64,000 nt of DNA, taken from Escherichia phage FP43. The notes beneath the pieces were generated by a model. The model searched no databases, was not told the origin of the DNA, and saw only the letters and a program-made list of their open reading frames with translations. The DNA lies in sequence record MN648445, one strand, 5' to 3'. Position 1 is the first letter of the stretch; the number at the start of each line of letters is the position of its first letter. A program made the translations under genes and the position numbers. This document shows, piece by piece, positions 17,136 through 47,331 of the stretch.

Positions 17136-17363
17136 ATGGCTAAAGTTAGTATTGATGTAGTTGATTATGAATACACCGAAGAAGTTATTCGCAACCGACA
17201 CCCTGAAGTTCGTATCGATTCAGTCCAAGATTCCAAGTTCTGGACAACTGAGCTTAATCTGAGTGGTCCTTATGAAGCTGTTAAGAAGTTCATGGTTGAA
17301 GAATACTGTGAAGGCATGCACCCCGAAGACGCAAAGTTTTATGTCAATTTGATTAAAAAATAA
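17136..17363 (+). CDS. Hypothetical protein
   Basis: 75-aa ORF with GAGGAAAA RBS. Confidence 0.4.
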   Translation: MAKVSIDVVDYEYTEEVIRNRHPEVRIDSVQDSKFWTTELNLSGPYEAVKKFMVEEYCEGMHPEDAKFYVNLIKK

Positions 17364-17399
17364 TTTACAAACTCTTGAGAGCAGAGTATAATGCTCTCG
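17363..17399 (+). promoter_or_regulatory. Early promoter cassette (TATAAT flanked by GAGAGCA/TGCTCTC); near-identical copy at 47266
   Basis: ATTTAC -35, TATAAT 17387..17392; the 45-bp cassette recurs at 47266..47312. Confidence 0.6.
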
Positions 17400-17433
17400 T
17401 TGGATAATAAACCACCAATTGAAAGGTAATAAT

Positions 17434-18027
17434 ATGAACACATTGAAGAAACTTGTTGAATTCATCCGCACTAAACTGGGTACTGCTATGGCTAAAAATC
17501 TGACTGTAGAAGAACAGTATAACGCAGCTGCAGATAAGTTGATTACCCAAATCAAAGAACTAAAAACGGCTTCTGTTAAATCTATTAACGAAGAAAAACG
17601 TATTCGCGAACTTGTTAATGAAAAGAACAAGCAAGCCGCTTCTAAGGAACGTGAAATTCGTAAGCTCCTGGCTGAAGGACAAGATGTTACCATGCATGCT
17701 AAGCTTGGACTTCTGTATCGTCGAACTGCCGAACAACTTAATACAAAAGCTGACGGGTATGCCGCTATGCGAATTGAAATTGCTCGTAAGGTGGTTGAAC
17801 TTGACGATGCTCGTCAGAACCTGGCAATCAAACTCGAATACATTCGTGAAACTCGAGCAGCCAATGCCCTTGGTATCTCTACCGCTGACGATGTAATTGA
17901 AATCGCTGCACTGACTAAGGTTGATATCGAAGACACTCTGACTCGTGTTGAAACGTTCAATGGCACTCCAGCTGGTGTCGAAACCACTTCTGCTGATGTA
18001 CAAGAATATATTAACTCTTTGAAATAA
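17434..18027 (+). CDS. Coiled-coil protein, function unknown
   Basis: 197-aa ORF, Ala/Glu/Lys-rich heptad-like sequence. Confidence 0.45.
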
Positions 18028-18036
18028 AATAATACG

Positions 18037-18059
18037 GAGGACTCCGGTCCTCCTTTTGG
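18037..18059 (+). terminator. Rho-independent terminator
   Basis: GGAGGAC-TCCG-GTCCTCC stem followed by TTTTGG. Confidence 0.7.
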
Positions 18060-18076
18060 ATAATAAAGGAGTTAAC

Positions 18077-18679
18077 ATGCGAAACCAAAATAATGATATT
18101 GACTCAATGTTCGAAGAGTTCCGAGATAAGGTAAATCCACCTACGTCTTTAGTTGATTCATTACGATATGTTGCAACCGGACGTAAATGGTACTGGTCGT
18201 CTTCTTATGAGACCACCGAGAAAACGGCTAGCCATAGCAGAAAATCTTTATTAGCCCCAGGTATTATGATTCATGATATCGGAGCTATTGCTAAACTAGT
18301 TGCAGACCATGATATTAGATTCACTGATTTCGTTGCTCCTACGTGGTCTGTTTGTTGTTTAAACACTGAATGGGAATATATCAGCGAACGCTCTGAAGAT
18401 TATTATGGTTTTAGAGATAAGCTTCTGAGGTCTAATATGTTTTATATCGATACAGAAGTTCTAGTCGATAATAAAAAATATTACTTTACGTTAATCATCG
18501 ATTCTGAAACTATGTATGAAGGCAAGCCTTTGCTTAAAAGAGTTGATGCTTTAAGTGCTATTGATGCGCTTTATGAAACTATGGTTGTTAGTCCTAATTT
18601 CACTAACAATTTAATCCTTGAGCAATTTATTATGGAATGTAGAGAATATGTCAAAGCCAACCCTATACATGCCAAGTAA
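18077..18679 (+). CDS. Hypothetical protein with EQFIMECR motif near C-terminus
   Basis: About 200 aa from ATG 18077 with AAAGGAG RBS. Confidence 0.45.
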   Translation: MRNQNNDIDSMFEEFRDKVNPPTSLVDSLRYVATGRKWYWSSSYETTEKTASHSRKSLLAPGIMIHDIGAIAKLVADHDIRFTDFVAPTWSVCCLNTEWEYISERSEDYYGFRDKLLRSNMFYIDTEVLVDNKKYYFTLIIDSETMYEGKPLLKRVDALSAIDALYETMVVSPNFTNNLILEQFIMECREYVKANPIHAK

Positions 18680-19043
18680 GCCCTGGGCGTATGAATACAA
18701 GCGTAAATTAATCCCAAATGAAGTACTATTTGGCCCTATTTTAGCTTTAGCATTTTTAATCTTTATGATTATAGGAGCTGTTTTAGATTCTAGTGAAGTT
18801 ATATCGTCTGATGCAGCATTTTCATTAATGTTCGTCGCACCACTTATTGTACCGTTTTTATTAATGCCTATTAATTGGGTGGGATATTGGCACCAAGGCC
18901 GTCATCACAGAGCCCGATTAAGAGAATGGAAAGTTCAGTGCGCAAAAGCCCAAGCTCAGTATGATGAAGCTGTTAAAAAGTATGAATATGAAGAAGCTAT
19001 GGAATTCGTTAAGGAAATAAGATGCAAAAGCCTCAACTCTTAA
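18648..19043 (+). CDS. Membrane protein (start uncertain)
   Basis: Two hydrophobic helices (ILALAFLIFMIIGAVL, LMFVAPLIVPFLLMPI). Confidence 0.4.
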   Translation: MSKPTLYMPSKPWAYEYKRKLIPNEVLFGPILALAFLIFMIIGAVLDSSEVISSDAAFSLMFVAPLIVPFLLMPINWVGYWHQGRHHRARLREWKVQCAKAQAQYDEAVKKYEYEEAMEFVKEIRCKSLNS

Positions 19044-19381
19044 CCGTATGGCCTTCTCTTGGTGAGAACATTCTAATTTTTATTATGAGTATTGGCATGG
19101 GATTTGCCTTTGGATTAGTTGGATTTCTTATTGACGGCGTTGTGTTAGGATTTATAGGGAACACTGGTGGATTCACAGACCAATGGCAGGACTTACGGTA
19201 TACCCAAGCCTTTGCATCCATCGCATCATTTTGTACTGTAGTCTATTTTTACTACGATTTTATAAACCACAACAAGAAAAATAAAAAGGTTTACGCTTCT
19301 CAAATGATTAGTTATAATGAACTCCTAGCTAGACGTGAAAATGAAACAATCGAAAACTTTATTAAGGAATGTAGAAAATGA
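19022..19381 (+). CDS. Membrane protein, C-terminal NFIKECR motif
   Basis: 119 aa, hydrophobic N-terminal half, C-terminus ...NETIENFIKECRK. Confidence 0.45.
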   Translation: MQKPQLLTVWPSLGENILIFIMSIGMGFAFGLVGFLIDGVVLGFIGNTGGFTDQWQDLRYTQAFASIASFCTVVYFYYDFINHNKKNKKVYASQMISYNELLARRENETIENFIKECRK

Positions 19382-19683
19382 GTAAGATTATTGAAATTAA
19401 AGTACCAGAGTTTAATGATGCCAAATCCGCTTCAGATGCAATTTATAAACTTCTGAATCAAGCTGAACGTATCGAAGAAGAAGCAACAAAGATCGCAGAC
19501 CAATATGCCGTATCATTTTCTGTAGGTGATTATGGTAGCGGTCGTACTTATTATCCTAAGGGTGAAATCGTATCCCAGTGGATGAAAGATGAAATTGAAA
19601 ATAATGGCGGCGATGTTAAGCGTGAAGGTAATGGATACGTTATTACTGAAGGTGCTTGGGTTTCGTCTTCTGCGTTGTGCTAA
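19378..19683 (+). CDS. Small protein, WVSSS-Cys C-terminal family, copy 1
   Basis: 101 aa ending ...GAWVSSSALC. Confidence 0.5.
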   Translation: MSKIIEIKVPEFNDAKSASDAIYKLLNQAERIEEEATKIADQYAVSFSVGDYGSGRTYYPKGEIVSQWMKDEIENNGGDVKREGNGYVITEGAWVSSSALC

Positions 19684-19692
19684 GGAATCATT

Positions 19693-20172: not shown

Positions 20173-20176
20173 AACA

Positions 20177-20214
20177 GTTTACAACAAGATAGGGCTATGT
20201 TATAGTAGTCCTAT
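20177..20214 (+). promoter_or_regulatory. Early promoter cassette (GATAGG.CTA / TAGTCCTATC family)
   Basis: GTTTAC 20177..20182, TATAGT 20201..20206. Confidence 0.6.
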
Positions 20215-20234
20215 CAAAACAAATGGAGTCCACA

Positions 20235-21471: not shown

Positions 21472-21510
21472 GTTTACAAGGTCTGTAGTTGTTGATACTA
21501 TAGACCTATC
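21472..21510 (+). promoter_or_regulatory. Early-type promoter cassette
   Basis: GTTTAC 21472..21477, TACTATAGACCTATC downstream. Confidence 0.5.
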
Positions 21511-21539
21511 AAAACAAATGAGTGAATGGAGATATAAAA

Positions 21540-21740
21540 ATGACTACTTTGAATAAACGTTTCGGTAAAGCTAAACCTGGTTGTGCAGCAGAACGTCGTT
21601 ATGTTTTCGCTCAGTTAGAAGATGTAGAGTATCAGATTAATCAAGTTCACATTACTGGTATCGAGCCTATGTGTGGCCTTGAAGCTCTTCGTGAAGTTCG
21701 TGATGGGTATCGTCGTGACATCGAAGAAATGTCAAAATAA
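21540..21740 (+). CDS. Small hypothetical protein
   Basis: 66-aa ORF. Confidence 0.35.
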   Translation: MTTLNKRFGKAKPGCAAERRYVFAQLEDVEYQINQVHITGIEPMCGLEALREVRDGYRRDIEEMSK

Positions 21741-21741
21741 G

Positions 21742-21779
21742 TGTACAAACTGATAGGACTATGTTATAGTAGTCCTATT
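21742..21779 (+). promoter_or_regulatory. Early promoter cassette (TGTACA -35 variant, GATAGGACTA/TAGTCCTAT arms)
   Basis: TGTACA 21742..21747, TATAGT 21765..21770. Confidence 0.55.
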
Positions 21780-21798
21780 AAAACATGAGGAGAATATT

Positions 21799-24766: not shown

Positions 24767-24818
24767 GTTTACTTCCTCCAAGGGTTTTGATACTATACAT
24801 TCATCAACTACTTGGAGG
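24767..24818 (+). promoter_or_regulatory. Early promoter cassette whose 3' arm contains the denV Shine-Dalgarno
   Basis: GTTTAC 24767..24772, TACTAT 24791..24796; perfect 8-bp arms CCTCCAAG (24775..24782) and CTTGGAGG (24811..24818). Confidence 0.6.
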
Positions 24819-24823
24819 AAATT

Positions 24824-25237: not shown

Positions 25238-25244
25238 GGAAAAA

Positions 25245-27419: not shown

Positions 27420-27718
27420 TGGCTCAAATCCTATCAGGCTTTGGAACTCATTATGAAGCATCTCGACGCATAACTGAAAACAATCCTTTTGGCCTTGTTC
27501 CGAAGCACAAGAAAATTCAAAGCCTTGATGACTTTGAGAACCGCCTATGGGCCCTCTTTAATGAGTACAAGGCATATCTGAAAGAAGACGCTGACGATTG
27601 TCTTGAAGAAGATGAGATTGCGTATTACGAACAACGCCTTGAACAGCTCAAGAACTTCCACCAGGTTCGTGACGAAGTATCTAAAGCAGTTAAAAAGTTA
27701 ATTCCTTTCAAAGAGTAG
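27419..27718 (+). CDS. Hypothetical protein
   Basis: 99-aa ORF; denV-regB interval where T4 carries the vs.x genes. Confidence 0.45.
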
Positions 27719-27766
27719 TTTACTTCTCCTCTAGTTGTGTTACTATAGACCTGTCAACTAGAGGAG
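27718..27766 (+). promoter_or_regulatory. Early promoter cassette with perfect 12-bp inverted repeat; 3' arm contains the regB Shine-Dalgarno
   Basis: GTTTAC 27718..27723, TACTAT 27741..27746, arms CTCCTCTAGTTG (27726..27737) and CAACTAGAGGAG (27755..27766). Confidence 0.65.
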
Positions 27767-27774
27767 AAATCAAA

Positions 27775-31370: not shown

Positions 31371-31420
31371 GTTTACTTCTCCTCAGGTTGTGTTATAGTA
31401 GTCCTTACTTACTAGAGGAG
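31371..31420 (+). promoter_or_regulatory. Early promoter cassette; CTCCTC near -35 pairs with GAGGAG RBS downstream
   Basis: GTTTAC 31371..31376, TATAGT 31394..31399. Confidence 0.55.
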
Positions 31421-31426
31421 AACGTT

Positions 31427-31613: not shown

Positions 31614-31820
31614 ATGCTTTACGATTATACTGGAAAATCTGAAGACGGTGTGCTTGAACTTTTACCTGAAAGCGCTGAAGATGATGATATGGTGGCAATG
31701 TTTTGTAAAAATGGTCCTGGGGATAAGGGATGGATTTATCTTCGCCAAGAAAATGACCTAATTGTTTTAGACCCAAAACAAGTTGAAGAACTTTATCAAC
31801 ATTTAAAACACAATCGGTAG
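31614..31820 (+). CDS. Small acidic hypothetical protein
   Basis: 68-aa ORF. Confidence 0.4.
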   Translation: MLYDYTGKSEDGVLELLPESAEDDDMVAMFCKNGPGDKGWIYLRQENDLIVLDPKQVEELYQHLKHNR

Positions 31821-31858
31821 TTTACATCTCGGTAGGATTATGTTATAGTAGTCCTACC
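31820..31858 (+). promoter_or_regulatory. Early promoter cassette (GGTAGGATTA / TAGTCCTACC arms)
   Basis: GTTTAC 31820..31825, TATAGT 31844..31849. Confidence 0.6.
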
Positions 31859-31877
31859 AAAACAAACGGAGAACAAA

Positions 31878-34463: not shown

Positions 34464-34467
34464 ATGT

Positions 34468-34487
34468 GGGGACCTTCGGGTCCCTTT
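34468..34487 (+). terminator. UUCG-tetraloop terminator hairpin
   Basis: GGGACC-TTCG-GGTCCC followed by TTT. Confidence 0.6.
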
Positions 34488-34515
34488 AGGGGGTCAAAAT
34501 ATTTTTAAAAAGTAG

Positions 34516-34552
34516 TGTACATGCTTTTAGGATATGTTATTATAGACCTATC
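34516..34552 (+). promoter_or_regulatory. Early-type promoter cassette
   Basis: TGTACA -35 variant, TATTAT -10, TAGACCTATC downstream. Confidence 0.5.
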
Positions 34553-34571
34553 AAAACAAGAGGAGAATAAA

Positions 34572-35552
34572 ATGTTCAACGTTCAAATCAAAAAAGGTAT
34601 CTATCGTAATAACGAAATCTCTGGTTCTTATGTTGCCACAAAGACCTGGTTCCCGGCAAAGCTTAATCCTGAATGTTCCCACTTAGGTGATGGTAAAATT
34701 TTCGTTATGATTGATGGTTCTGAACGTGGAGTATGGGTCTTCAAATCAGACATCGTAATGGAAGGAGTTGAGACATCACCAGTTGCAGTTGTTGAAAGCA
34801 CTGAAGATATGAAAACTCGTATCAACAAACGCTTTAAAGTAATGAACATGATGACGAATGGCATTATCGATGGCAAAATTCGTTCACTCATTATTTCAGG
34901 TGCAGCTGGTATTGGTAAGACGTATTCTCTGGATAAAGCACTTAATAATGCTAATGATAATGGTTTCATCAAATACAAAAGCATTAATGGTAAAATCTCT
35001 GGTATTGGCCTTTACGAACAACTTTGGCTCAACCGTGATGCAGACAGCGTTCTCTTAATCGACGACGTTGACGTATTCTCAGATATGGACATCCTGAACC
35101 TTCTTAAAGCAGCATTAGATACCGGTGATAAACGCAAAGTTTGTTGGAGCACTGCATCATCTTATCTTGATGATAAGGGTATCGATAAAGAATTTGAGTT
35201 TGAAGGTACTATCGTTTTCATTACAAACGTTGATATCGATAAAGAGTTAGAACGTGGTTCGAAACTTGCTCCTCACCTTCAAGCTTTAGTATCTCGTTCA
35301 GTATATCTCGATCTTGGAGTACACTCTAATGAAGAGATTATGGTTCGAGTTGAAGATGTAATATTATCTACTGACATGATGCAGAAACGTGGCTTGACTG
35401 ATGCTGAAACGTATAAAGCATTGTCCTGGATGAAGGCTAATGTATCTCGTCTTCGCAATGTATCATTACGTACGGCTCTTTATGTAGCAGATTTTATTTC
35501 AACCGATAAAGATGGTTGGGAGGAAATCTCCGAAGTAACTTTACTGAAATAA
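34572..35552 (+). CDS. P-loop ATPase (AAA-like), function unknown
   Basis: 326 aa; Walker A GAAGIGKTYS and Walker-B-like VLLIDDVD. Confidence 0.55.
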   Translation: MFNVQIKKGIYRNNEISGSYVATKTWFPAKLNPECSHLGDGKIFVMIDGSERGVWVFKSDIVMEGVETSPVAVVESTEDMKTRINKRFKVMNMMTNGIIDGKIRSLIISGAAGIGKTYSLDKALNNANDNGFIKYKSINGKISGIGLYEQLWLNRDADSVLLIDDVDVFSDMDILNLLKAALDTGDKRKVCWSTASSYLDDKGIDKEFEFEGTIVFITNVDIDKELERGSKLAPHLQALVSRSVYLDLGVHSNEEIMVRVEDVILSTDMMQKRGLTDAETYKALSWMKANVSRLRNVSLRTALYVADFISTDKDGWEEISEVTLLK

Positions 35553-35980: not shown

Positions 35981-36020
35981 GTTTACAAGGTCTATGGTTG
36001 TGTTATTATAGACCTATCAA
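35981..36020 (+). promoter_or_regulatory. Early promoter cassette (AGGTCTAT / ATAGACCT arms)
   Basis: GTTTAC 35981..35986, TATTAT 36004..36009. Confidence 0.55.
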
Positions 36021-36036
36021 CTACTGGAGGTAAAAC

Positions 36037-36626: not shown

Positions 36627-37622
36627 ATGAGCATTACATCTGATGCGGTAAAACATGAAATTAACGGTTTATGTGCTTCACAGATTAAAGTGTGGTTTAA
36701 AGACCATAACGATCGCAGAGCACTTAATTATGAGCAAATTGCTATCCAAGTTCATCAATTACTGACTAGTAAATTTGATTTTCATATGCCGTCTGAAATC
36801 TATACTAATCTGCCGCGAGCACTTATTAAAGCGTGTAAAGGTTATGGAAAATCAATGGCTGATGGAATCTTCAGCGCGCTGAATAAACTTAACGTTCTGT
36901 CGATGATTAACTCTAACAATATCCTGCGTAATCTAGGACGTACTGATTTGTTCGGTCGTGAACAGTGTAAAATGCCTTTGAAATGGATTGTTGCTCATCT
37001 TAACGAGAACCAAACACGTTTTATGGCCGTAACAGCACGTTTACAAATGGGCCTAGATCGTCAGATGAACTTTAAAACTCATCCACGTTATTCAGGTTCA
37101 ACAGACTTTTATAAATGTGAGCTTCAAAAGGTTGGTGGTAAAACTGTCTTAGTAGTTCGTGTAACGTTTGAAGGACGACGTCAAGGATATTTTGACATAA
37201 TCGGCTCTGGTCTTAAACATTGTGGATTTATCGACGAAGTTGATATCAAGCGAGACGGCATTGGATACCGTATTGGGTATGTTTGTACTCTTAAAGAAGA
37301 GATTTCAGGACCAGCTCCAGGTCTAAAAGACGTTAGATATAAAGACGAGCTCGTTGAAGAAATAAAAGAAGTTGAATATGATATCAACCAAGAAGATGCT
37401 CTTAAAGACCTTATTGATGAACTGAACCAAGATGTTATTCCTGTTCAGAAATTTGAATCAAAACATGCTGAGCAAATCAAATACTTTGAAGCTTTGATTA
37501 ACGAACTTAATGTAACTATTCAACAGACTGACGATGAAATCTCACGATTAGCAGGCTTAAACGGTAAAAATAAAACAGAACGAGCTAATCTTATTCAAGT
37601 AGTAAAACTTCTTAAGGAATGA
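36627..37622 (+). CDS. Hypothetical protein with C-terminal coiled coil (member 1 of three tandem genes of similar size)
   Basis: 331-aa ORF; C-terminal heptad-like helix. Confidence 0.5.
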   Translation: MSITSDAVKHEINGLCASQIKVWFKDHNDRRALNYEQIAIQVHQLLTSKFDFHMPSEIYTNLPRALIKACKGYGKSMADGIFSALNKLNVLSMINSNNILRNLGRTDLFGREQCKMPLKWIVAHLNENQTRFMAVTARLQMGLDRQMNFKTHPRYSGSTDFYKCELQKVGGKTVLVVRVTFEGRRQGYFDIIGSGLKHCGFIDEVDIKRDGIGYRIGYVCTLKEEISGPAPGLKDVRYKDELVEEIKEVEYDINQEDALKDLIDELNQDVIPVQKFESKHAEQIKYFEALINELNVTIQQTDDEISRLAGLNGKNKTERANLIQVVKLLKE

Positions 37623-37651
37623 TGTACAACCAAGGATGGTTGGAGTATAAT
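37623..37651 (+). promoter_or_regulatory. Early promoter cassette CAACCAAGGATGGTTGGAGTATAAT
   Basis: TGTACA -35, hairpin CAACCA-AGGA-TGGTTG in spacer, TATAAT 37646..37651; near-identical copy at 38643. Confidence 0.6.
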
Positions 37652-37677
37652 AAATTTTTCAACATGAGGAATATAAA

Positions 37678-38637
37678 ATGGCTTTTATTACACGTAGAGA
37701 ACTTATCAAAGAATTTACCTCGAACGCATATACTCCAGGACCTAATCCTATCCGTATGCCTGTAAAGACTCCTGAAGAGATTGAGGAAATCTGTTCATAT
37801 TATGGGATTACTTCTCGTATGTTTACCCAATTTGAATGCGTTACTAACACACCCGTTAAAGAGTTCATTAAAAATGGTGAGTTCAGCCGTTTATTGGCCA
37901 AACAGAAACTTCGTAATTTTTGTATTGGCGGTGAAGGTCAATATTTCGCTAAGCAGTTCCGGAATAACCTTAACAATCTGATGGCCATTGCTTCTCGTAT
38001 TCGTCCTCAAGCAATTAACATGAAACATTTGAAATATACTTACGATAAGTTAGAAATCATGGTTATCAGTGAGAACGAGTTCACTCTTACGTATAAACCT
38101 AAGAATGATAACGTTGCTCGTGTATTCCACCAAGCGTTGGAAGTTTTAGGTGATAATATCCACCAGATTAAAGCAATTTATTCTCGTGAGCTTAATATTA
38201 TCGACCCTATCAAGAATAAGGGCCATATCGCTATCCAGGCTCGTGTATCTATTAGTAAAAAGGTTCCTGCACCATGGTGGCACAAAGACTCTGAATATTA
38301 TCAAAATCTTAAAAAGGAAAATGCATTGTTTGAAGGCAATATTACAGCAACACCAGTCGGTAATGCAGAGGTTCTAGGCGCATATTCTCCAGCACAATCT
38401 GGTATGTTTAAAGGTTTGCCAAATGTGTGCAAACTGTCGACAGTAAAACTAAACGTTTCTAATGACCTTCTTCCTGCCGAAGACTACCATTATAATCAAA
38501 TCAAGGCCACTGTAGACCAACTATCCGTTGAACTTGATAAAGCACAAGCTAAGCTTCGTGATGCTCAACAGGTGGTGACCAATCTCCAGTTGCAGTACTC
38601 TAAACTTTTTAACGCAATGAATGCATTAAAATCATAA
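37678..38637 (+). CDS. Hypothetical protein with C-terminal coiled coil (member 2)
   Basis: 319-aa ORF. Confidence 0.5.
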   Translation: MAFITRRELIKEFTSNAYTPGPNPIRMPVKTPEEIEEICSYYGITSRMFTQFECVTNTPVKEFIKNGEFSRLLAKQKLRNFCIGGEGQYFAKQFRNNLNNLMAIASRIRPQAINMKHLKYTYDKLEIMVISENEFTLTYKPKNDNVARVFHQALEVLGDNIHQIKAIYSRELNIIDPIKNKGHIAIQARVSISKKVPAPWWHKDSEYYQNLKKENALFEGNITATPVGNAEVLGAYSPAQSGMFKGLPNVCKLSTVKLNVSNDLLPAEDYHYNQIKATVDQLSVELDKAQAKLRDAQQVVTNLQLQYSKLFNAMNALKS

Positions 38638-38642
38638 ATCAG

Positions 38643-38671
38643 TTTACAACCAAGGATGGTTGGAGTATAAT
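38643..38671 (+). promoter_or_regulatory. Early promoter cassette, duplicate of 37623
   Basis: GTTTAC 38643..38648, identical spacer hairpin, TATAAT 38666..38671. Confidence 0.6.
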
Positions 38672-38699
38672 GAACCTATCTTAACGAGAGGAAAATATT

Positions 38700-39647
38700 A
38701 TGACACGTTCACATTACATTGAATACTTTGCCGGTCTTATCGCTAACGCTCACGCTCAACGTGCTATTGGTGCTTGGACTGATGTTCCACATAAAGGTGT
38801 GGTTTATAGTATTCTTCGTGATTTTCTTACATACACAGGCCAAGAAAATCATATCTGTAAAGATACTCAGAATGCGTATTCTCATTCATTAGGGACCCTG
38901 CTTCAATGGTTCAAACGTTCTCGTTTATTATCTTCTACTGTAGCTCGTGATAACATCAAAAACTTTATGAAGCCGAGCTTTATTAAATCTGTGACATCTA
39001 AAACCGATTTGGTTGAATTCACTATTGTTAATGATGTTAAAAAGACTCATTTGGCTGATTGGTTATCTACCATTCCTGAAACTAAATTTGCTGATAAATT
39101 TGCTTATGAATTCAATAACCAAGTGAATATGCTTTTTAAACATTCTCGTAAATTATTCACGGGCGGTGATGGTCGTACAAATAAAGTTCATGTTAAAGAT
39201 TGGGTTACTGCAGTATTCAAACCAACAGGTAATGGTAACGCATCATTGTCAATTGATATCCAGGTTCCTTATTACTACTCACGTAATCTCGGTACCATGA
39301 AAGCCGAAGAAATTAATAAGCACAACAAAACTATTCGTTCGTTGTCTTATAAACTTATTACATTGTTAGAGACTATGGATGTTGTTGAAACGTTCGACGA
39401 ATCCGAAGATAACGGTTCAATGTTATACAGTTCTCGCACCCGAATTAAGCTGAAGAACCCTAACGAGTATAAACTTAAGACTATTAAAGAACCTAAAGTA
39501 GAAAAAGTTGACAACTTGAGCGAAGAACGTGAATATCTCAAATCTCGTCTGAAAGAAGTCGAAGCCCAGATTAAAGAACAGACTAAATCGTTAAAAGCTC
39601 TGAATGCGAAAGCGGACGGTTTACGAAATGCCATTGAGGTGTTATAA
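38700..39647 (+). CDS. Hypothetical protein with C-terminal coiled coil (member 3)
   Basis: 315-aa ORF. Confidence 0.5.
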   Translation: MTRSHYIEYFAGLIANAHAQRAIGAWTDVPHKGVVYSILRDFLTYTGQENHICKDTQNAYSHSLGTLLQWFKRSRLLSSTVARDNIKNFMKPSFIKSVTSKTDLVEFTIVNDVKKTHLADWLSTIPETKFADKFAYEFNNQVNMLFKHSRKLFTGGDGRTNKVHVKDWVTAVFKPTGNGNASLSIDIQVPYYYSRNLGTMKAEEINKHNKTIRSLSYKLITLLETMDVVETFDESEDNGSMLYSSRTRIKLKNPNEYKLKTIKEPKVEKVDNLSEEREYLKSRLKEVEAQIKEQTKSLKALNAKADGLRNAIEVL

Positions 39648-39952
39648 TGAACCTACGTCTTCTAGAGGATATTGATATGAGCACTAATCATGGCTTAGTT
39701 AAGTTTATTGATGATAGTTCAAAGATTGAATTTGTCCAGCGAGATAAAATTCATGGTGAAGAAGAGTTCGTTCCTCCAGCATGGAACGAAATAATGAAAA
39801 TGGTTGAACGACGTGAAAATGCTGCCAAATCGGCAGCAAAACATCCGTGTCCGGAATGTGGAACTATCCAAGTCCAACTGGTTAACTGGACCAGTGATAA
39901 CTTGAAATTGAAATGCCGTAAATGCTTCCACAAATTTGAGAGAACATTATAA
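39647..39952 (+). CDS. Small zinc-ribbon protein
   Basis: 101 aa with CPECG ... CRKC. Confidence 0.45.
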   Translation: MNLRLLEDIDMSTNHGLVKFIDDSSKIEFVQRDKIHGEEEFVPPAWNEIMKMVERRENAAKSAAKHPCPECGTIQVQLVNWTSDNLKLKCRKCFHKFERTL

Positions 39953-40365: not shown

Positions 40366-40621
40366 AGTGTACGGGTATGACTCTACTATTCATAAATGCA
40401 TTTATTGTGATAATGCGAAACGATTGCTGACTGTTAAGAAACAGCCGTTCGAATTCATTAATGTTATGCCAGAAAAAGGTGTTTTTGATGATGAGAAAAT
40501 TGCTGAGCTTCTGGTTAAGCTTGGACGTGAATCACAAGTTGGATTGACTATGCCTCAAGTATTTGCTCCTGATGGAAGTCACATTGGTGGATTTGACCAA
40601 CTGCGAGAATATTTTAAATGA
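40358..40621 (+). CDS. nrdC: Glutaredoxin/thioredoxin NrdC
   Basis: 87 aa MFKVYGYDSTIHKCIYCDNAKRLL...; CxxC active site; recognised T4 NrdC pattern. Confidence 0.85.
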   Translation: MFKVYGYDSTIHKCIYCDNAKRLLTVKKQPFEFINVMPEKGVFDDEKIAELLVKLGRESQVGLTMPQVFAPDGSHIGGFDQLREYFK

Positions 40622-40914
40622 GTATTGATTTAACTTTCCCTGGCCCTTATGACCAGGGTGAATTAGAAGCTTTATTATATCAAGAAATGTGCTCTCGTGC
40701 CAAGAACGATATTCAGTATGCTATCGATAATCCATGGGGCGAATTTCGAGTAATGATGGGTAATCGAATCATCGGTGTCCAATGGCGATTCGTTGGCCTT
40801 GAGCCTGAGGACTATGAAGAAAACGAGCACGGTGACTGGATTCCTGTTGGTGAATATCACTGGGAATACGGTGGTCCTGATTTTGAAGTCTCTTGTTCAT
40901 GGGTAGAACAATAA
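40618..40914 (+). CDS. Hypothetical protein
   Basis: 98-aa ORF. Confidence 0.4.
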   Translation: MSIDLTFPGPYDQGELEALLYQEMCSRAKNDIQYAIDNPWGEFRVMMGNRIIGVQWRFVGLEPEDYEENEHGDWIPVGEYHWEYGGPDFEVSCSWVEQ

Positions 40915-40932
40915 CCTGCGAGAAAATTTTAA

Positions 40933-41289
40933 ATGACATATTCATTAAATCTTAAAGATTTCCAGGATGTATACGAAGTTTGTGCCAATGAACTTGGTCC
41001 TGATGCTCCAACTATTATTGAAGTTTTAAATGTGCTCCCTTCATCATTAGCTTACGAAGCCAAATCATGGGGTTGGAACGACACTGTAGTTCGTGATGAC
41101 CTTTACGTCCTGATGAACGATATGATGGTTAAAAAGGCAGAACCGGTTGCACCAATGGTTACCATTACCGTTGAAGAATATAATCGCCTGCAAGCCATTG
41201 AAGAGCTTCTGTGGAACATTGAATGTGACCTGCCGTCAGGGCTAGAATCCTGGATTGATTATGAAGAGCTCAATAAACTCCGGGGTTAA
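40933..41289 (+). CDS. Hypothetical protein
   Basis: 118-aa ORF. Confidence 0.4.
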   Translation: MTYSLNLKDFQDVYEVCANELGPDAPTIIEVLNVLPSSLAYEAKSWGWNDTVVRDDLYVLMNDMMVKKAEPVAPMVTITVEEYNRLQAIEELLWNIECDLPSGLESWIDYEELNKLRG

Positions 41290-41417
41290 ACCGTGGTATT
41301 CTGCTCGATGGGAGACTGTCGAGCCAGACGTCGAAACGGTTTACAACGACGAAGAACCATGTTATGATGAACCTTCAATAAATGAATTAATTGATATGGA
41401 AATGGGAAGAGATTATT

Positions 41418-42512: not shown

Positions 42513-44326
42513 AAATTGAAAAAGAAATTGAAGGATTAATTTATAAAACTAATAAAGATCTTTTGAACGAGAATGCTAATAAAGATTCTCGTGTTTTTCC
42601 AACTCAACGGGACCTTATGGCTGGTATTGTGTCTAAGCACATTGCCAAAAATATGGTCCCGTCTTTTATTATGAATGCGCATGAAAGCGGAATCATTCAT
42701 ATGCATGATATTGATTATTCTCCTGCTCTTCCATTTACTAATTGTTGTTTAGTCGATTTAAAGGGGATGCTTGAGAACGGATTTAAATTAGGCAATGCTC
42801 AAATTGAAACGCCTAAATCGATTGGTGTTGCTACTGCAATTATGGCACAAATTACTGCACAGGTTGCTTCACATCAATACGGCGGAACGACTTTTGCTAA
42901 TGTAGATAAAGTACTTTCTCCTTATGTTAAACGTACATACGCTAAACATGTTGAAGATGCAGAAAAATGGCAAATCGCTGATGCGTTGAATTATGCTCAA
43001 TCTAAAACAGAAAAAGACGTATACGATGCATTCCAAGCTTATGAATATGAAGTAAATACTCTTTTTAGTTCAAACGGGCAAACGCCTTTTGTAACAATTA
43101 CATTTGGTACGGGAACCGATTGGACCGAACGAATGATTCAGAAGGCAATTCTTAAAAACCGCATTAAAGGTCTTGGTCGTGATGGAATAACTCCTATTTT
43201 TCCTAAACTTGTTATGTTTGTTGAAGAAGGTGTTAATCTTTATAAAGATGATCCAAACTATGATATTAAACAACTTGCGTTAGAATGTGCAAGCAAAAGA
43301 ATGTATCCTGACATTATTTCGGTTAAGAATAATAAAGCTATTACCGGTTCTTCAGTTCCGGTTTCTCCAATGGGTTGCCGTAGTTTCTTGAGCGTATGGA
43401 AAGATTCGACTGGTAATGAAATTCTTGATGGACGTAATAATCTTGGTGTTGTAACACTGAATCTTCCTCGCATCGCGTTAGATTCTTATATTGGAACACA
43501 GTTCAATGAACAGAAATTTGTTGAGCTATTTAATGAACGAATGGATCTGTGCTTTGAAGCCTTGATGTGCAGAATTAGTTCTTTAAAGGGCGTTAAAGCG
43601 ACTGTTGCTCCTATTCTTTACCAAGAAGGTGCATTCGGGGTTCGTCTTAAACCTGACGACGATATAATTGAGATATTTAAAAACGGTAGAAGTTCAGTGT
43701 CTTTAGGATACATTGGTATTCATGAATTGAATATTCTTGTTGGTCGTGATATTGGACAAGAAATTTTAACTAAAATGAATGCTCATCTTAAACAGTGGAC
43801 CGAAAGAACTGGATTTGCTTTTAGCTTATATTCTACTCCTGCTGAAAACCTTTGTTATCGCTTCTGTAAACTTGATACAGAAAAATATGGAAGTGTAAAA
43901 GATGTCACTGATAAAGGCTGGTACACTAACAGTTTCCATGTTTCAGTAGAAGAAAATATTACTCCGTTTGAAAAAATTTCTCGTGAAGCGCCATATCATT
44001 TCATTGCGACAGGTGGTCACATTTCTTATGTTGAACTTCCTGATATGAAAAATAACTTAAAAGGACTTGAGGCTGTCTGGGATTATGCTGCACAACATTT
44101 AGATTATTTTGGTGTTAATATGCCAGTGGATAAATGTTTTACATGCGGAAGTACTCATGAAATGACTCCTACTGAAAACGGATTTGTTTGTTCAGTTTGT
44201 GGAGAAACTGATCCTAAAAAGATGAACACCATAAGAAGAACATGCGGTTATTTGGGAAATCCGAACGAGCGCGGATTTAATCTAGGCAAAAATAAAGAAA
44301 TCATGCATAGGGTTAAACACCAATGA
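42509..44326 (+). CDS. nrdD: Anaerobic ribonucleoside-triphosphate reductase NrdD
   Basis: 605 aa, contiguous with no intron; C-terminal glycyl-radical motif RRTCGY. Confidence 0.88.
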   Translation: MKIEKEIEGLIYKTNKDLLNENANKDSRVFPTQRDLMAGIVSKHIAKNMVPSFIMNAHESGIIHMHDIDYSPALPFTNCCLVDLKGMLENGFKLGNAQIETPKSIGVATAIMAQITAQVASHQYGGTTFANVDKVLSPYVKRTYAKHVEDAEKWQIADALNYAQSKTEKDVYDAFQAYEYEVNTLFSSNGQTPFVTITFGTGTDWTERMIQKAILKNRIKGLGRDGITPIFPKLVMFVEEGVNLYKDDPNYDIKQLALECASKRMYPDIISVKNNKAITGSSVPVSPMGCRSFLSVWKDSTGNEILDGRNNLGVVTLNLPRIALDSYIGTQFNEQKFVELFNERMDLCFEALMCRISSLKGVKATVAPILYQEGAFGVRLKPDDDIIEIFKNGRSSVSLGYIGIHELNILVGRDIGQEILTKMNAHLKQWTERTGFAFSLYSTPAENLCYRFCKLDTEKYGSVKDVTDKGWYTNSFHVSVEENITPFEKISREAPYHFIATGGHISYVELPDMKNNLKGLEAVWDYAAQHLDYFGVNMPVDKCFTCGSTHEMTPTENGFVCSVCGETDPKKMNTIRRTCGYLGNPNERGFNLGKNKEIMHRVKHQ

Positions 44327-45119: not shown

Positions 45120-45121
45120 TT

Positions 45122-45728: not shown

Positions 45729-45837
45729 CCAGGTGCCGCCTGGTCTTCTTTATCTCATTTCTAATATAATCCATTGGAATCTTCACTTCACTATCTCCTT
45801 GTGCCCCTCTCAACTCAAAAATATTTTTCATAAAACA

Positions 45838-45866
45838 GTTTACATCCTCGATAGATATGTTAAGAT
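45838..45866 (+). promoter_or_regulatory. Early-type promoter
   Basis: GTTTAC 45838..45843, TAAGAT at 17-nt spacing. Confidence 0.4.
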
Positions 45867-45894
45867 TAAACCATCTGCTATAGAGGAAAACAAA

Positions 45895-46077: not shown

Positions 46078-46322
46078 TTAGTTTAGACTCAAAGAAAGTT
46101 GTTCTAACCCTTAAAGTTAATGACGAGCGACTGGTATTCATTACCATTTCCGATTTGCATGTTGAAATTGCTAATGGCGTTCGTACTTATCAAACGTCTA
46201 AAACTCATTGGGACTATATCCCAATGTTGACGCTTACTCAGCGTTTAGAATCAATCGGACTTAAAGACCTTTCAGTAAGTGAAGTGAATTTTATCAAACG
46301 CATTGTATCAATCAACCTCTGA
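46074..46322 (+). CDS. Hypothetical protein
   Basis: 82-aa ORF with ATGA overlap. Confidence 0.4.
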   Translation: MISLDSKKVVLTLKVNDERLVFITISDLHVEIANGVRTYQTSKTHWDYIPMLTLTQRLESIGLKDLSVSEVNFIKRIVSINL

Positions 46323-46329
46323 GGTACTT

Positions 46330-46623
46330 ATGGGTAAAACATATCGTCGTAAAGATTTGAAAGTTCGCGATTACGACTATTTTGGTAAGCGTAAAGCTCC
46401 TGACGGTGTTAGCCACAAAGACATGGTTGAAAACATCTTCCGCTCAGATAAATGGAAACGTATGAAAGGTGTTGATTCTGAAGTCAAGAATGAAATGAAT
46501 CGACAACTCCGCAAAGAAGTTCGTAAGTTGAAAAAAGATGTTTACAGTAAAGAAGAGTATGATTATAATACTTCTCATACTGAAGCCAAACGTAAAGCTA
46601 ACGAATGTTATCGTTACAGTTGA
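46330..46623 (+). CDS. Basic hypothetical protein
   Basis: 97-aa Lys/Arg-rich ORF. Confidence 0.4.
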   Translation: MGKTYRRKDLKVRDYDYFGKRKAPDGVSHKDMVENIFRSDKWKRMKGVDSEVKNEMNRQLRKEVRKLKKDVYSKEEYDYNTSHTEAKRKANECYRYS

Positions 46624-46630
46624 GGAAATT

Positions 46631-46765
46631 ATGAATATTAAACGAATGCTTTTTAAGCAAGGATTATATACTTTAAATGTTAATCCAAAGGGTGATACAA
46701 CTAAATGGTCTGTAAATGACTGGATTAAGTTCATCGATGAAAATGGGGCGTGGAACACAAAATGA
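46631..46765 (+). CDS. Small hypothetical protein
   Basis: 44-aa ORF with GAGGAAA RBS. Confidence 0.3.
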   Translation: MNIKRMLFKQGLYTLNVNPKGDTTKWSVNDWIKFIDENGAWNTK

Positions 46766-46962
46766 ATCCTGAATCTATGTTATCGCAAAAGCTTCGTGAA
46801 GAACGTGCAGAATTCTTTGCCAATATGAAACTCAACGGCGTTGAGGATGAAGACTTCTTACGCTGGTTCTGGATTTACAAATACAAAGAATGCCAGCACG
46901 CTGTACTATTGACTTGTGCAGCTATGTACGAAGGCTGGAAAGGCGCTAAAAAGTTCGGTTAA
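46762..46962 (+). CDS. Small hypothetical protein
   Basis: 66-aa ORF with ATGA overlap. Confidence 0.35.
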   Translation: MNPESMLSQKLREERAEFFANMKLNGVEDEDFLRWFWIYKYKECQHAVLLTCAAMYEGWKGAKKFG

Positions 46963-46965
46963 TAA

Positions 46966-47003
46966 TGTACAACGATAGGAAGACATGTTATTATCTTCCT
47001 ATC
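46966..47003 (+). promoter_or_regulatory. Early promoter cassette (GATAGGAAGA / TCTTCCTATC arms)
   Basis: TGTACA 46966..46971, TATTAT 46989..46994. Confidence 0.55.
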
Positions 47004-47025
47004 GTCTTAAAATGAGGAAAATATC

Positions 47026-47265
47026 ATGGCCCAAGAATTAGATTTTATCAAATTCAAAAAACACCTCGACGTTAAAATTGGGAATTCAATTGTTAGGATT
47101 GAGTATGACATTTTAACAGATGCTATTACTGTTAGTTGTGATGGAAATAGTTTCAGCTTCGATACAACCGAAAACAAATACCCAATCTATAAAGGCATCT
47201 TTGATATGGGTGTTGATATTACTCCACGTGATACAAATTACTTACTTTTCATGCTTAAAAAATAA
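47026..47265 (+). CDS. Hypothetical protein
   Basis: 79-aa ORF with GAGGAAAA RBS. Confidence 0.4.
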   Translation: MAQELDFIKFKKHLDVKIGNSIVRIEYDILTDAITVSCDGNSFSFDTTENKYPIYKGIFDMGVDITPRDTNYLLFMLKK

Positions 47266-47301
47266 TATACAAACTCTTGAGAGATGAGTATAATTCTCTC
47301 G
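47266..47301 (+). promoter_or_regulatory. Early promoter cassette, near-identical to 17363..17399
   Basis: ACAAACTCTTGAGAG..GAGTATAAT..CTCTCGTTGGATAATAA shared with 17363 copy; TATAAT 47289..47294. Confidence 0.6.
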
Positions 47302-47331
47302 TTGGATAATAAAATAACCGAGGAAAATAAT

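Follow-up and report, generated by a model that had tools for sequence, protein, structure and literature searches.

In T4-like phages, the PeSL element has been described as a "mobile regulatory cassette", and recombination between such cassettes is central to the published PeSL model (PMC2839356, PMC4122927). For the PeSLs of phage RB49, a role in attenuating or insulating transcriptional read-through has been proposed and partly tested. We analyzed a 64,000-nt stretch of Escherichia phage FP43 (record MN648445), hereafter the window, to which all coordinates refer. The window is 96-99% identical to Mosigviruses and its genes map one-to-one onto those of RB69; it is the early, hyperplastic gene region of an RB69-like phage (Mosigvirus). 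A sequence-only reading had singled out two pairs of near-identical promoter cassettes at distant sites and proposed that they are potential substrates for homologous recombination that would delete or swap the gene modules between them. The recombination idea itself is not new, since it is the PeSL model, and the two pairs are ordinary, well-supported new examples of a mechanism already known. The explanation as a whole is very probable: both pairs are four members of a T4-type early-promoter cassette family of the PeSL type that is at least 24 strong, and cassettes of one sub-type offer homology for recombination.

Layout and promoter character of the cassette family

The window contains at least 24 cassettes with a common layout; these cassettes, and the genes flanking the two pairs, all lie on the + strand. 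Each cassette consists, in order, of an A-rich upstream part, a GTTTAC-type -35 element, a gap of 17-18 nt, a TAnnnT -10 element, and a short leader, which contains the ribosome-binding site and runs up to the start codon (ATG) of a small early gene. In most there is also an inverted repeat, whose folding either leaves the -10 element in the loop of a hairpin or base-pairs spacer and ribosome-binding site. This is the layout of the published PeSL elements.

The cassettes include the best sigma-70 matches of their regions, and the description of the repeats as promoter cassettes is borne out for all four paired copies. They are top-scoring sigma-70-like sites, matching 10-11 of the 12 hexamer positions with a 17-nt spacer, and each lies directly 5' of a ribosome-binding site and ATG. 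Their RB69 counterparts were predicted to be early promoters in 2006 (Pe:72069 and Pe:42515 for the copies of the first pair, 1A and 1B, and Pe:52042 and Pe:51019 for those of the second, 2A and 2B; PMC1524935 supplement 3), and promoters are annotated at equivalent sites in SA79RD (including that of 2B) and fPS-90. Host sigma-70 RNA polymerase would be expected to start approximately 7 nt past the -10 element, directly after infection.

Both repeat pairs are present far beyond chance expectation, with two window matches to each pattern compared to 0.00 expected from 100 dinucleotide-preserving shuffles. When 24 cassettes are compared over 56 nt anchored at the -10 element (276 pairwise comparisons), the median identity is 48%. 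The first pair is the most similar of the 276 (91%), while the second, at 68%, ranks only 15th because its identity is limited to the core.

The two repeat pairs and their recombination products

Cassette 2A (37622..37651) lies between the homologs of nrdC.6 (36627..37622) and nrdC.5 (37678..38637; 319 aa), and cassette 2B (38642..38671) lies between nrdC.5 and the nrdC.3 homolog (38700..39647). The -35 element of 2A, ATGTAC, overlaps the nrdC.6 stop codon; its -10 element, TATAAT, is at 37646-37651, its spacer forms an AACCA/TGGTT hairpin, and the nrdC.5 ATG is at 37678. In 2B, the -35 element is GTTTAC, the -10 element, TATAAT, is at 38666-38671, and the nrdC.3 ATG is at 38700. The recurrence of 37623-37651 at 38643-38671 is confirmed, with one position that differs, and the core TACAACCAAGGATGGTTGGAGTATAAT is identical over 27 nt (37625-37651 and 38645-38671).

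The proposal that these repeats serve as recombination substrates holds for this pair. The nrdC.5 homolog is absent from 21 Mosigvirus records (19 phages), in which one chimeric cassette joins nrdC.6 to nrdC.3, exactly the product expected from recombination between the two copies; by comparison, 142 records match at least 80% of a query spanning cassette 2A at the nrdC.6|nrdC.5 boundary (37612-37680). The junction in the nrdC.5-less records lies inside the common 27-bp core, and a synthetic nrdC.6/nrdC.3 junction is one continuous match in all 21. Likewise, homology of the window to AV114, ESCO47 and p000v stops at 37651 or 37675 and restarts at 38645, with 27-53 nt of the relative covered by both alignment segments. 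Cassettes 2A and 2B are the left and right crossover sites of a natural nrdC.5 deletion. The event could instead have been an insertion; the presence of an nrdC.5 homolog in T4 favours the deletion direction, although it is no proof. The 19 nrdC.5-less phages may represent just two events, one in a p000v-like group and one in ESCO47.

Cassette 1A (17350..17411) lies between homologs of frd.3 (17136..17363; in T4 this position is held by e.7) and e.6 (17434..18027), which it serves. Its -35 element is ATTTAC at 17363-17368 in the T4 register (sigma-70 hexamer TTTACA, 17364-17369), and its stem arms, GAGAGC (17377-17382) and GCTCTC (17393-17398), enclose a loop that holds the -10 element TATAAT (17387-17392); the e.6 ATG is at 17434. 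Cassette 1B (47252..47313) lies 29.9 kb away, between homologs of RB69ORF075c (47026..47265) and 55.2 (47332..47664), the latter being the gene it serves, with a -35 element ATATAC at 47265-47270, a -10 element TATAAT at 47289-47294, stem arms GAGAGA (47279-47284) and TCTCTC (47295-47300), and the 55.2 ATG at 47332. The intervals first assigned to this repeat were unequal in length (43 and 47 nt) and offset by 1, and the repeat is longer. In register, 17363-17411 and 47265-47313 differ by four substitutions in 49 nt, not three, and the full repeat (17350-17411 and 47252-47313) is identical at 57 of 62 positions, with its left end within the final codons of the genes 5' of it (...AAAAAATAA) and its right end 19 nt past the -10 element.

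For this pair the recombination proposal does not hold in the form in which it was made. Neither the 30-kb deletion joint nor the reciprocal joint was found among 50,697 records. The interval between the copies contains e and 49, which are essential genes in T4; such a deletion should therefore not be viable. The pair is not a deletion substrate. What it shows is copying and exchange of a cassette between loci and module turnover beside copy B, not deletion or swapping of the interval.

The pair belongs to one widespread promoter type, here type 1, that serves different genes in different genera: type-1 cassettes are also found before motB in T4, before e.6 in KIT03 and slur14, and before other genes in Dhakavirus and a Klebsiella phage. 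In T4, by contrast, e.6 is preceded by a different promoter, and there is no promoter between 55.3 and 55.2. The 55.2 leader of T4, GGATAATAAAAT, is nevertheless a shared one. The leader of the type-1 cassette at e.6, GGATAATAAA, is of the 55.2 type and occurs in T4 at 55.2 and not at e.6; this cassette was probably copied from the 55.2 locus. Copy A differs by 0 or 1 mismatch in 10 other Mosigviruses, and A-type patches occur within the B copies of EP02SG and TH12. Copies A and B agree at the base that follows the stem in 9 of 10 genomes (Fisher p about 0.03, calculated by hand). This gene-conversion signal, drawn from two chimeric copies and ten genomes, suggests that in some genomes copy B still exchanges patches of sequence with its partner, copy A. 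Copy B also marks the right-hand end of the small ORF075c module. ESCO47 and T4 lack this module and TH12 has a divergent allele of it (about 75% identical); the module undergoes gain, loss or replacement next to the cassette.

Cassettes at module boundaries

Coincidence of module boundaries with cassettes in related genomes, on which the sequence-only reading had staked its proposal, is found at five further places. The ORF075c module is bounded on its left by a cassette at 46965..47025 (stem GATAGGAAG/CTTCCTATC, folding z = -3.7; RB69 counterpart Pe:42816, PMC1524935 supplement 3), which with 47265 delimits the indel 46972|47265. Cassettes at 12895..12959 (z = -7.2) and 13226..13293 (z = -4.8) flank an ORF (12960-13220) that is absent in JK42, RB69, phiEC1, mar005p1 and LNA2 (12965|13224); relatives carry one cassette, and two alignment segments overlap by 75 nt there. 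Cassettes at 21472..21525 and 21741..21798 (both z = -4.4) flank an ORF (21522-21740) that is absent in seven relatives, with a junction, 21478|21741, in or at the -35 element. The interval between the cassettes at 31371..31426 and 31820..31877 (the latter z = -4.7) is absent in ESCO47 (31405|31819, 37-nt overlap). The cassette before nrdC.10 (34515..34574; CUUCGG hairpin 5' of it at 34467-34485) is present in two copies in RB69 and LNA2, where they flank the extra ORF RB69ORF102c (34522-34574 duplication).

Single cassettes also lie at homology breakpoints. These include the cassettes before an internal-protein-like gene (12540..12603; z = -3.3; breakpoint at 12572-12626), at 16303..16361 (CUUCGG hairpin 5' at 16253-16274; breakpoints 16297 and 16348), at 16865..16924 (breakpoint 16840 in the A-rich upstream region, seven relatives) and before frd.3 (17078..17135; ESCO47 breakpoint 17114). 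TH12 homology restarts exactly at a probable cassette within an ORF end (19289..19377), and ESCO47 homology restarts exactly at 24767, the start of a cassette (24767..24823; z = -5.0) whose spacer pairs with its ribosome-binding site (TTCCTCCAAG/CTTGGAGGAA). In five relatives, a replacement (27424|27714, 26554|27718) ends on its right at a cassette with the same kind of pairing (27718..27774; z = -5.0). Further members are at 20177..20234 (z = -4.1), before nrdC.8 at 35981..36036 (z = -2.3), within the nrdC.3 end at 39619..39676, at 41339..41417 (probable) and, with partial spacer/ribosome-binding-site pairing, at 45838..45894; those at 35981, 39619 and 41339 carry early promoter annotations in SA79RD.

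Counting phylogenetically non-independent breakpoints, 21 of 70 unique ones fall inside cassette intervals, which make up 5.9% of the region (p = 3e-10), and under a stricter gene-junction null a breakpoint occurs at 16 of 23 cassette junctions and 26 of 58 others (one-sided p = 0.038). Homology breakpoints are thus enriched at cassettes, modestly so against the gene-junction null. Many indels occur at cassette-free junctions (for example 29578|29989, 23283|23503 and 42003); another, 40633|40916, lies at a 21-nt non-promoter repeat, and a homing-endonuclease insertion lies at 42513, also cassette-free. The products of cassette recombination are present in the relatives; as to the pathway, cassettes of the same sub-type, identical over 27-60 nt, would act as portable homology patches for the phage's very active recombination system.

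Conserved hairpins and rival explanations

Folding gives z < -2 for 13 of 24 cassettes, with a mean z of -2.4. The 6-bp type-1 stem, which surrounds the -10 element, is kept in 98.7% of cells across 13 sequences from four T4-like groups (Mosigvirus, Tequatrovirus, Dhakavirus and a Klebsiella phage). Four of its six pairs change on both sides in a compensatory manner, and its covariation score was reached by 0 of 500 shuffles.

One rival reading is that selection for promoter function alone, convergent or purifying, accounts for the near-identity, leaving the cassettes without a recombination role and the indels coincidental. The consensus-like -35 and -10 elements, the near invariance of copy A in Mosigviruses and the modest gene-junction p value are all consistent with this reading, which we nonetheless consider improbable. 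The identity extends over the spacer and across 20 nt of leader, neither of which is read by sigma-70, and covariation shows a constraint on stem pairing alone, yet the stems of paired copies agree base for base. Furthermore, what stands at the junctions in relatives is one chimeric cassette, and the overlap of 27-75 nt falls precisely on the repeats. The cassette type before an orthologous gene also differs between genera, as with motB, which is served by type 1 in T4 but by a type-2 variant in RB69.

Similarly improbable is a reading in which recombination is set off by the hairpins themselves, perhaps when a structure-specific nuclease such as endonuclease VII cuts them as cruciforms or hairpins, making the cassettes dedicated sites instead of passive homology. 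The PeSL authors raised this possibility, and both the covariation and the defined place of several junctions (-35 or core) agree with it. However, crossovers occur wherever identity lies, be it 75 nt at 12.9/13.2 kb or 7-8 nt at the -35 element (21478|21741, 46972|47265), and the G-U pairs speak for a structure of one strand rather than a cruciform of both. Repeats outside cassettes, namely the 21-nt gene-start repeat and the leader of the internal-protein genes, which we take to encode their capsid-targeting signal, yield the same kind of indel.

It is quite unlikely that the inverted repeats are operators of a dimeric phage regulator and that the identical cassettes mark a co-regulated gene set. 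The repeats do overlap the -10 element, a classical repressor position, and the type-1 cassette is conserved before several genes, but the stem sequence varies freely while pairing is kept, including by sense-strand G-U pairs, and stems of different cassettes are unrelated; these features point to a nucleic-acid structure and not a sequence-specific protein site. Even so, ACAAACTCTTG, GAGTATAAT and GGAT.ATAAA, which are constant, could bind a factor.

Returning to the hairpins as nucleic-acid structures, a terminator scan did not flag those of type 1 or type 2, and they have no T-run behind them, making a classical terminator role unlikely for the four paired cassettes. Since the 5' arm lies upstream of the inferred start, the hairpin would form only in transcripts that extend from the gene 5' of it or in single-stranded DNA. 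Its role there would most likely be to attenuate or insulate read-through, the same as proposed for RB49.

Finally, by blastp the proteins flanking the repeats are not paralogs of one another (no match below E = 0.018); the repeats are therefore no relics of duplicated genes. That the second pair remains from tandem duplication of a roughly 1-kb unit, nrdC.5 and nrdC.3 (319 and 315 aa) being similarly sized paralogs with cassettes 1,020 bp apart, is hardly credible, given that nrdC.6, nrdC.5 and nrdC.3 lack significant blastp similarity (best E = 1.6-8.7), that DNA identity ends at the cassette edges, and that the same core is also found elsewhere, between dexA and motB.1 in RB69 and in phiE142-like contigs.

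Promoter cassettes of the early region

The window (G+C ~37.5%) is 96-99% identical to phages of the genus Mosigvirus, the RB69-like T4-type phages (JK42, APCEc01, ATK47 and SA79RD), and its genes from approximately 12.5 kb on lie on the + strand. These genes correspond one to one to those of the early region of RB69: the internal-protein genes come first, then e, tk and nrdC, and gene 55 last. Four repeated cassettes, all on the + strand, are found between + strand ORFs of this region. Promoter-early stem-loops (PeSLs), the published mobile promoter elements of T4-type phages, have a like location, between genes of the plastic early region and directly before an often small ORF of the same strand. 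Cassette 1A (17350..17411, -35 starting at 17363) lies between the frd.3 homolog and e.6, and cassette 1B (47252..47313, -35 starting at 47265) lies between ORF075c, the RB69ORF075c homolog (47026..47265), and 55.2. Cassette 2A (37622..37651, -35 starting at 37622) separates nrdC.6 from nrdC.5 (37678..38637), and cassette 2B (38642..38671, -35 starting at 38642) separates nrdC.5 from nrdC.3. A scan of the whole window at the Rfam gathering thresholds returned two tRNAs as the only known RNA families. The two tRNA genes at 14730-14884 (Met-CAT and Arg-TCT) are also found in RB69, and in ESCO47 a third, for tRNA-Asn, lies between the two.

Both repeat pairs that had been noticed in a sequence-only reading are present in the window. 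The members of pair 1 (1A and 1B) are identical at 57 of 62 positions (17350-17411 versus 47252-47313), and from the -35 onward they differ by four substitutions in 49 nt rather than by the three originally counted. Pair 2 (2A and 2B) has an exact common core of 27 nt, TACAACCAAGGATGGTTGGAGTATAAT. Neither pattern occurred in 100 shuffles of the window. Since the proteins flanking the repeats have no similarity to one another by blastp, the repeats are confined to regulatory DNA and are not remnants of gene duplication; the same comparison rules out a tandem duplication as the origin of pair 2. The exact pair-2 core was found in only four stretches of IMG/VR, which are too few for population analysis, and a third copy of the core was seen downstream of dexA.

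The description of these repeats as promoter cassettes is borne out by a pattern scan and a repeat finder, which place all four in a larger promoter family. At least 24 + strand sites between 12.5 and 47.3 kb have one common layout, in which an A-rich stretch precedes a GTTTAC-like hexamer and TAnnnT follows after 17-19 nt; AG(A/T)CCTATCAA often comes next, and a ribosome-binding site and ATG complete the cassette. The four cassettes carry TTTACA, TGTACA or TATACA followed by N17 and TATAAT, matching sigma-70 at 10-11 of 12 positions. An AT-rich stretch precedes 1A and 1B (AAAAAATAA) and 2B (AAAATCATAAATCA), and the sequence upstream of 2A is the coding end of nrdC.6. At their 3' ends all four have a ribosome-binding site and a start codon, as PeSLs do. 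They are among the best sigma-70-like matches of their regions. Because the total number of sigma-70-like sites in this AT-rich DNA is not above that of shuffles in two of three scanned regions, and is about twice the shuffle mean in the third, we did not take a consensus match alone as evidence; recurrence and conservation carry the argument.

According to Nolan et al. 2006 (PMC1524935), a T4-type early promoter has a GTTTAC-like hexamer at -36 to -31, TAnnnT at -12 to -7 and A-rich sequence at -40 to -44, and 58 such promoters are predicted in RB69. The family cassettes have these features. The RB69 counterparts of all four cassettes are predicted early promoters (Pe:72069, Pe:42515, Pe:52042 and Pe:51019), as is that of another family member, cassette 46965 (Pe:42816), these Pe entries being predictions and not mapped transcript starts (PMC1524935, supplement 3). 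Equivalent sites are annotated as T4-type early promoters in related genome records. Most cassettes have the AG(A/T)CCTATCAA motif where the transcript presumably starts, roughly +1 to +12 past the -10 (e.g., 12925-12936, 21502-21513 and 38672-38680). Frequently the 3' arm of the hairpin is made up of this motif, which also lengthens the homology common to the cassettes.

nrdC.5 and the borders of insertions and deletions

A 69-nt query containing cassette 2A is matched over its full length in most Mosigviruses (142 records match at least 80% of it at the nrdC.6/nrdC.5 boundary), and in a subset the match stops at the last base of the -10. In the three phages of this subset that we examined, AV114, ESCO47 and p000v, nrdC.6 is followed by a single gene of ~950 bp. 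These phages align with the window up to 37651 (p000v up to 37675) and again from 38645. In the relative, the two segments have 27-53 nt in common, the mark of a single cassette that belongs to both. This cassette is chimeric: it has the ATGTAC -35 of copy A, the common core, and the leader of copy B with the start of nrdC.3. The joint that deletion of nrdC.5 would be predicted to produce reads ...GGAATGATGTACAACCAAGGATGGTTGGAGTATAATGAACCTATC..., and a synthetic 600-nt deletion joint gives one continuous match in 21 records, which represent 19 phages once two RefSeq duplicates are subtracted. Pair 2 was thus rightly proposed as a recombination substrate, with nrdC.6, one chimeric cassette and nrdC.3 in succession in these records. 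The difference could also be read as an insertion of nrdC.5, but RB69 nrdC.5 is annotated as similar to a T4 protein and loss is therefore the more economical reading. ESCO47 is far more divergent than the p000v-like group and its junction sequence differs, which suggests that there were at least two events.

We aligned the window to 14 stretches from 12 relatives and found other indels with both borders in cassettes and a single cassette in the phage without the insert. The window-specific ORF 12960-13220 (borders at 12965 and 13224) is absent in five relatives with an overlap of 75 nt, ORF 21522-21740 (21478 and 21741) is absent in seven with an overlap of 7-8 nt, and a 413-nt interval (31405 and 31819) is absent in ESCO47 with an overlap of 37 nt. 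ESCO47 also lacks the spacer of cassette 46965 together with ORF075c (46972 and 47265), with an 8-nt overlap and a junction in the -35 hexamers. Conversely, the cassette at 34522-34574 is doubled around an extra ORF in RB69 and LNA2 (overlap 53 nt). Replacements end exactly at cassette starts at 27714/27718, 24767, 19289, 16297 and 16840.

The sequence-only reading had called for module boundaries in relatives to be compared with the cassettes. Of 70 unique borders, 21 fall in cassette intervals, which make up 5.9% of the region (binomial p = 3e-10). With gene junctions as a fairer null, the odds ratio is 2.8 (one-sided p = 0.038): borders occur at 16 of 23 junctions with a cassette and at 26 of the 58 without, so cassettes are preferred, but not exclusive, border sites. 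The recombination interpretation stands for pair 2 and for the family generally, and fails in its literal form for pair 1.

Repeats other than cassettes also give rise to indels, namely the internal-protein-like leader (25237-25275) and a 21-nt gene-start repeat (40602-40622 and 40916-40936). Some indels are insertions of homing endonucleases (42513, JK42), and others have an overlap of only 5-10 nt. Passive exchange that depends on homology and is carried out by the recombination system of the phage agrees better with this pattern than a dedicated site-specific mechanism does.

The 21-nt direct repeat, CTGCGAGAA(T/A)ATTTTAAATGA, consists of a gene end, a ribosome-binding site and a start codon and contains no promoter. 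It flanks ORF 40618-40914, which is absent in RB69, SA79RD, phiEC1, mar005p1, EP02SG and an IMG/VR contig with a junction overlap of 34 nt. Five genes (12604, 12960, 15624, 24484 and 25245) begin with the leader ATGAAAAC.TAT.AAGA.TTTAT (MKTY.EF.; repeat families D9, D11 and D12), which we take to be a capsid-targeting leader of internal-protein-like genes, and insertion or replacement borders of relatives lie inside this coding repeat at 25237-25275, 12626 and 24482. Between pin and gene 49, an extra ORF of 192 nt (RB69ORF087c) is present at 42003 in RB69, SA79RD, ESCO47, EP02SG and an IMG/VR contig. In JK42, an inserted gene for a SegG-type homing endonuclease separates gene 49 from nrdD (window 42513-42568). 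BEU50 (OM632671) has an apparent 4.2-kb gap between 18376 and 22602 with an 8-nt overlap; we left it out of the evidence because the record is flagged unverified, and the gap may be an assembly artefact.

Where promoter cassettes share a few dozen identical bases, they serve as crossover points, and nrdC.5 is a clean natural example of the gain and loss of a small early gene in T4-like phages, in a group that is widely isolated for therapy. This predicts which accessory genes should be unstable, namely those between cassettes of the same type, such as nrdC.5, and points to sites where engineered inserts could be lost.

Movement and exchange of type-1 cassettes

Pair 1 had been put forward as a substrate for deleting or swapping the intervening genes. 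We dropped this reading because a search of 50,697 phage records found neither synthetic joint, that of the 30-kb deletion or its reciprocal, as one uninterrupted match. The interval between the two copies includes e and 49, which are essential genes in T4.

Comparison among genomes shows instead that copies of the cassette move and exchange sequence. The T4 early promoter before e.6 is an ordinary one but differs from type 1, the kind to which 1A and 1B belong, and between 55.3 and 55.2 T4 lacks a promoter altogether. Even so, T4 has the leader GGATAATAAAAT ahead of 55.2, as does ESCO47. The e.6 copy in the window carries GGATAATAAA, which suggests that the 55.2 locus was the source of the cassette now at e.6. 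Copy A has 0-1 mismatch in ten other Mosigviruses, whereas copy B varies. The copy B of EP02SG combines an A-type left arm and loop with a B-type right arm and, after the stem, the A-type allele of its own genome; that of TH12 is mostly A-type. The post-stem site is the same in copies A and B in 9 of 10 genomes (p ~0.03 by a hand-computed Fisher test that is uncorrected for shared ancestry). In TH12, the ORF075c allele is ~75% identical, and its divergence extends from within cassette 46965 to the -35 of the cassette at 47265. Copy B, in whose -35 hexamer the ESCO47 junction also falls, is a module border as well.

The type-1 cassette is found well beyond these two loci. It precedes motB in T4, T6, fPS-90 and FelixPlatter, e.6 in KIT03 and slur14 (as in the window), a gene after pseT.2 in a Dhakavirus, and other genes elsewhere. 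In RB69, motB is preceded by a variant of the pair-2 type, and the pair-2 core occurs in exact form between dexA and motB.1. We compared 13 versions of type 1, taken from Mosigvirus, Dhakavirus, a Klebsiella phage and Tequatrovirus, the last of these with the T4 motB promoter among its members. Pairing in the 6-bp stem around AGAGTATAAT holds in 98.7% of cells; the few G-U pairs are on the sense strand, and four of the six pairs have two-sided changes (variants GAGAGC/GCTCTC, GAGAGA/TCTCTC, GGGAGT/ACTCCC, GGGACC/GGTCCC and GAGGAC/GTCCTC). None of 500 shuffles reached the observed covariation, and all slid registers collapse. Compensatory changes have kept a hairpin that encloses the -10 in four T4-like phage groups, before non-orthologous genes; one promoter type moves among loci and genera and retains its hairpin through such changes.

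A leader, GGAT(A/T)ATAAA or GGAGTATAAAAT, lies 2-4 nt past the type-1 stem and is conserved across genera and loci (17399-17411 and 47301-47313 in the window; stretches L013 and L023-L030 from related phages). By eye, we set aside a MotA box or a late promoter as explanations of GGAT(A/T)ATAAA because the distance to a TGCT-like motif is too short and TATAAATA is unmatched.

Hairpins and comparison with known elements

Segments from just after the -35 to just before the ATG were folded and compared with dinucleotide shuffles. Thirteen of the 24 cassettes are significantly more stable than shuffles (z < -2; mean z = -2.4), and the hairpins follow two designs. In one, the arms lie on either side of the -10, the 5' arm within the spacer, and the loop contains the -10 (12895, 13226, 20177, 21741, 46965 and type 1). 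In the other, it is the ribosome-binding site with which the spacer pairs (24767-24823, 27718-27774, 31371-31426 and 45838-45894), for example as TTCTCCTCTAGTTG/CAACTAGAGGAGAA; the ribosome-binding site would be sequestered in read-through RNA but not in RNA started at the cassette. T4 has this second design too, between dexA and motB.2 (L030 2560-2620). Type-2 cassettes, the kind of 2A and 2B, have a weak AACCA/TGGTT stem in the spacer (z = -1.2 and -0.05) with one compensatory variant in RB69. All four cassettes thus have a stem-loop in or beside the promoter. Transcripts started at a type-1 cassette would be expected to begin in or after the 3' arm of its stem, which could therefore form only in upstream read-through RNA or in single-stranded DNA. 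A terminator scan flagged none of the four, whose stems are followed by GTTGGATAA or GAGTATAAT and no T-run; the type-1 stem is therefore not a classical terminator, and a rho-independent terminator role is unsupported for any of the four hairpins.

PeSLs were described in RB49/phi1 by Arbiol et al. 2010 (PMC2839356) and in PST/T4 and nt-1/KVP40 by Comeau et al. 2014 (PMC4122927), with the stem-loop mostly between the -35 and -10 or overlapping the -10 (PMC2839356). The window elements resemble them in the AT-rich stretch, the sigma-70-like promoter, a stem-loop in that position, the ribosome-binding site and the ATG. Likewise, they are dense in a plastic early region, before small ORFs, and an ORF between two cassettes in one phage corresponds to a single chimeric cassette in a close relative. 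Their -35/-10 consensus is that of the PST/T4 pair (TTTACW N17 TAYWAT). The window stems differ in that they are not of the RB49 G-run/C-run type, and the four cassettes lack a terminator-like T-run. At the level of sequence, the elements have every feature that defines a PeSL, and they agree with T4-type early promoters too. RB49 and phi1 are the only phages for which promoter activity, terminator activity and mini-circles have been demonstrated, and reporter assays of promoter and terminator/attenuator activity concerned RB49 elements only (PMC2839356). We found no description of PeSLs in RB69-like phages: "RB69" is absent from the 2010 paper (PMC2839356), and the 2014 analyses, whose authors consider the mechanism probably valid for all T4-like phages, concern PST/T4 and nt-1/KVP40 (PMC4122927). 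Our results extend the PeSL picture to RB69-like phages.

T4 early promoters (GTTTAC ... TAtaAT with an upstream A-rich element) and the RB69 list agree with the cassettes in consensus, orientation and position 5' of early genes. The passages of PMC1524935 consulted treat these promoters as transcription signals only and note no sub-families identical beyond the consensus, no hairpins and no link to indels. Integron cassettes and lambdoid morons are likewise small genes that travel with their own expression signals, and in integron attC sites, as in the type-1 stem, structure is conserved more than sequence. However, no integrase or site-specific recombinase is implicated here, where exchange looks homology-dependent, and, unlike in morons, the regulatory sequence itself is the exchange site. 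The internal-protein-like leader (25237-25275, 12604 and 24484), within which window indels and replacements are bordered, differs from the cassettes in being coding sequence, taken as a capsid-targeting leader, and no promoter. It resembles the repeats behind the shuffling at the T4 internal-protein locus (Repoila et al. 1994, as cited in PMC4122927). These results add new examples and no new principle: the case of nrdC.5, the type-1 cassette that spans genera and has a covarying stem, and the patch exchange between copies A and B; no new kind of system is revealed.

It is also conceivable, though we think it quite unlikely, that the hairpin enclosing the -10 is a functional element in itself and no by-product, acting either as an expression gate or as a structure-specific target that actively stimulates cassette exchange. 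As a gate, the hairpin would restrict translation or stability to RNA started at the gene's own promoter, to the exclusion of read-through RNA. As an exchange target, it would define a system of gene cassettes that recalls integron attC sites, with general recombination as the driving force.

Two near-identical CUUCGG-tetraloop hairpins (16253-16290 and 34465-34495), each followed by TTAGGGGGTC, lie just upstream of cassettes 16303 and 34515, and more CUUCGG hairpins occur at 49700 and 56335. The stretch 15560-15623 contains a terminator-like hairpin that has a T-run (AAAGGTTGGGGCTTTTTTT) and, after it, a late-promoter-like TATAAATA, both ahead of the internal-protein-like gene at 15624; a replacement border in RB69, phiEC1 and EP02SG falls within this stretch at 15577-15585.
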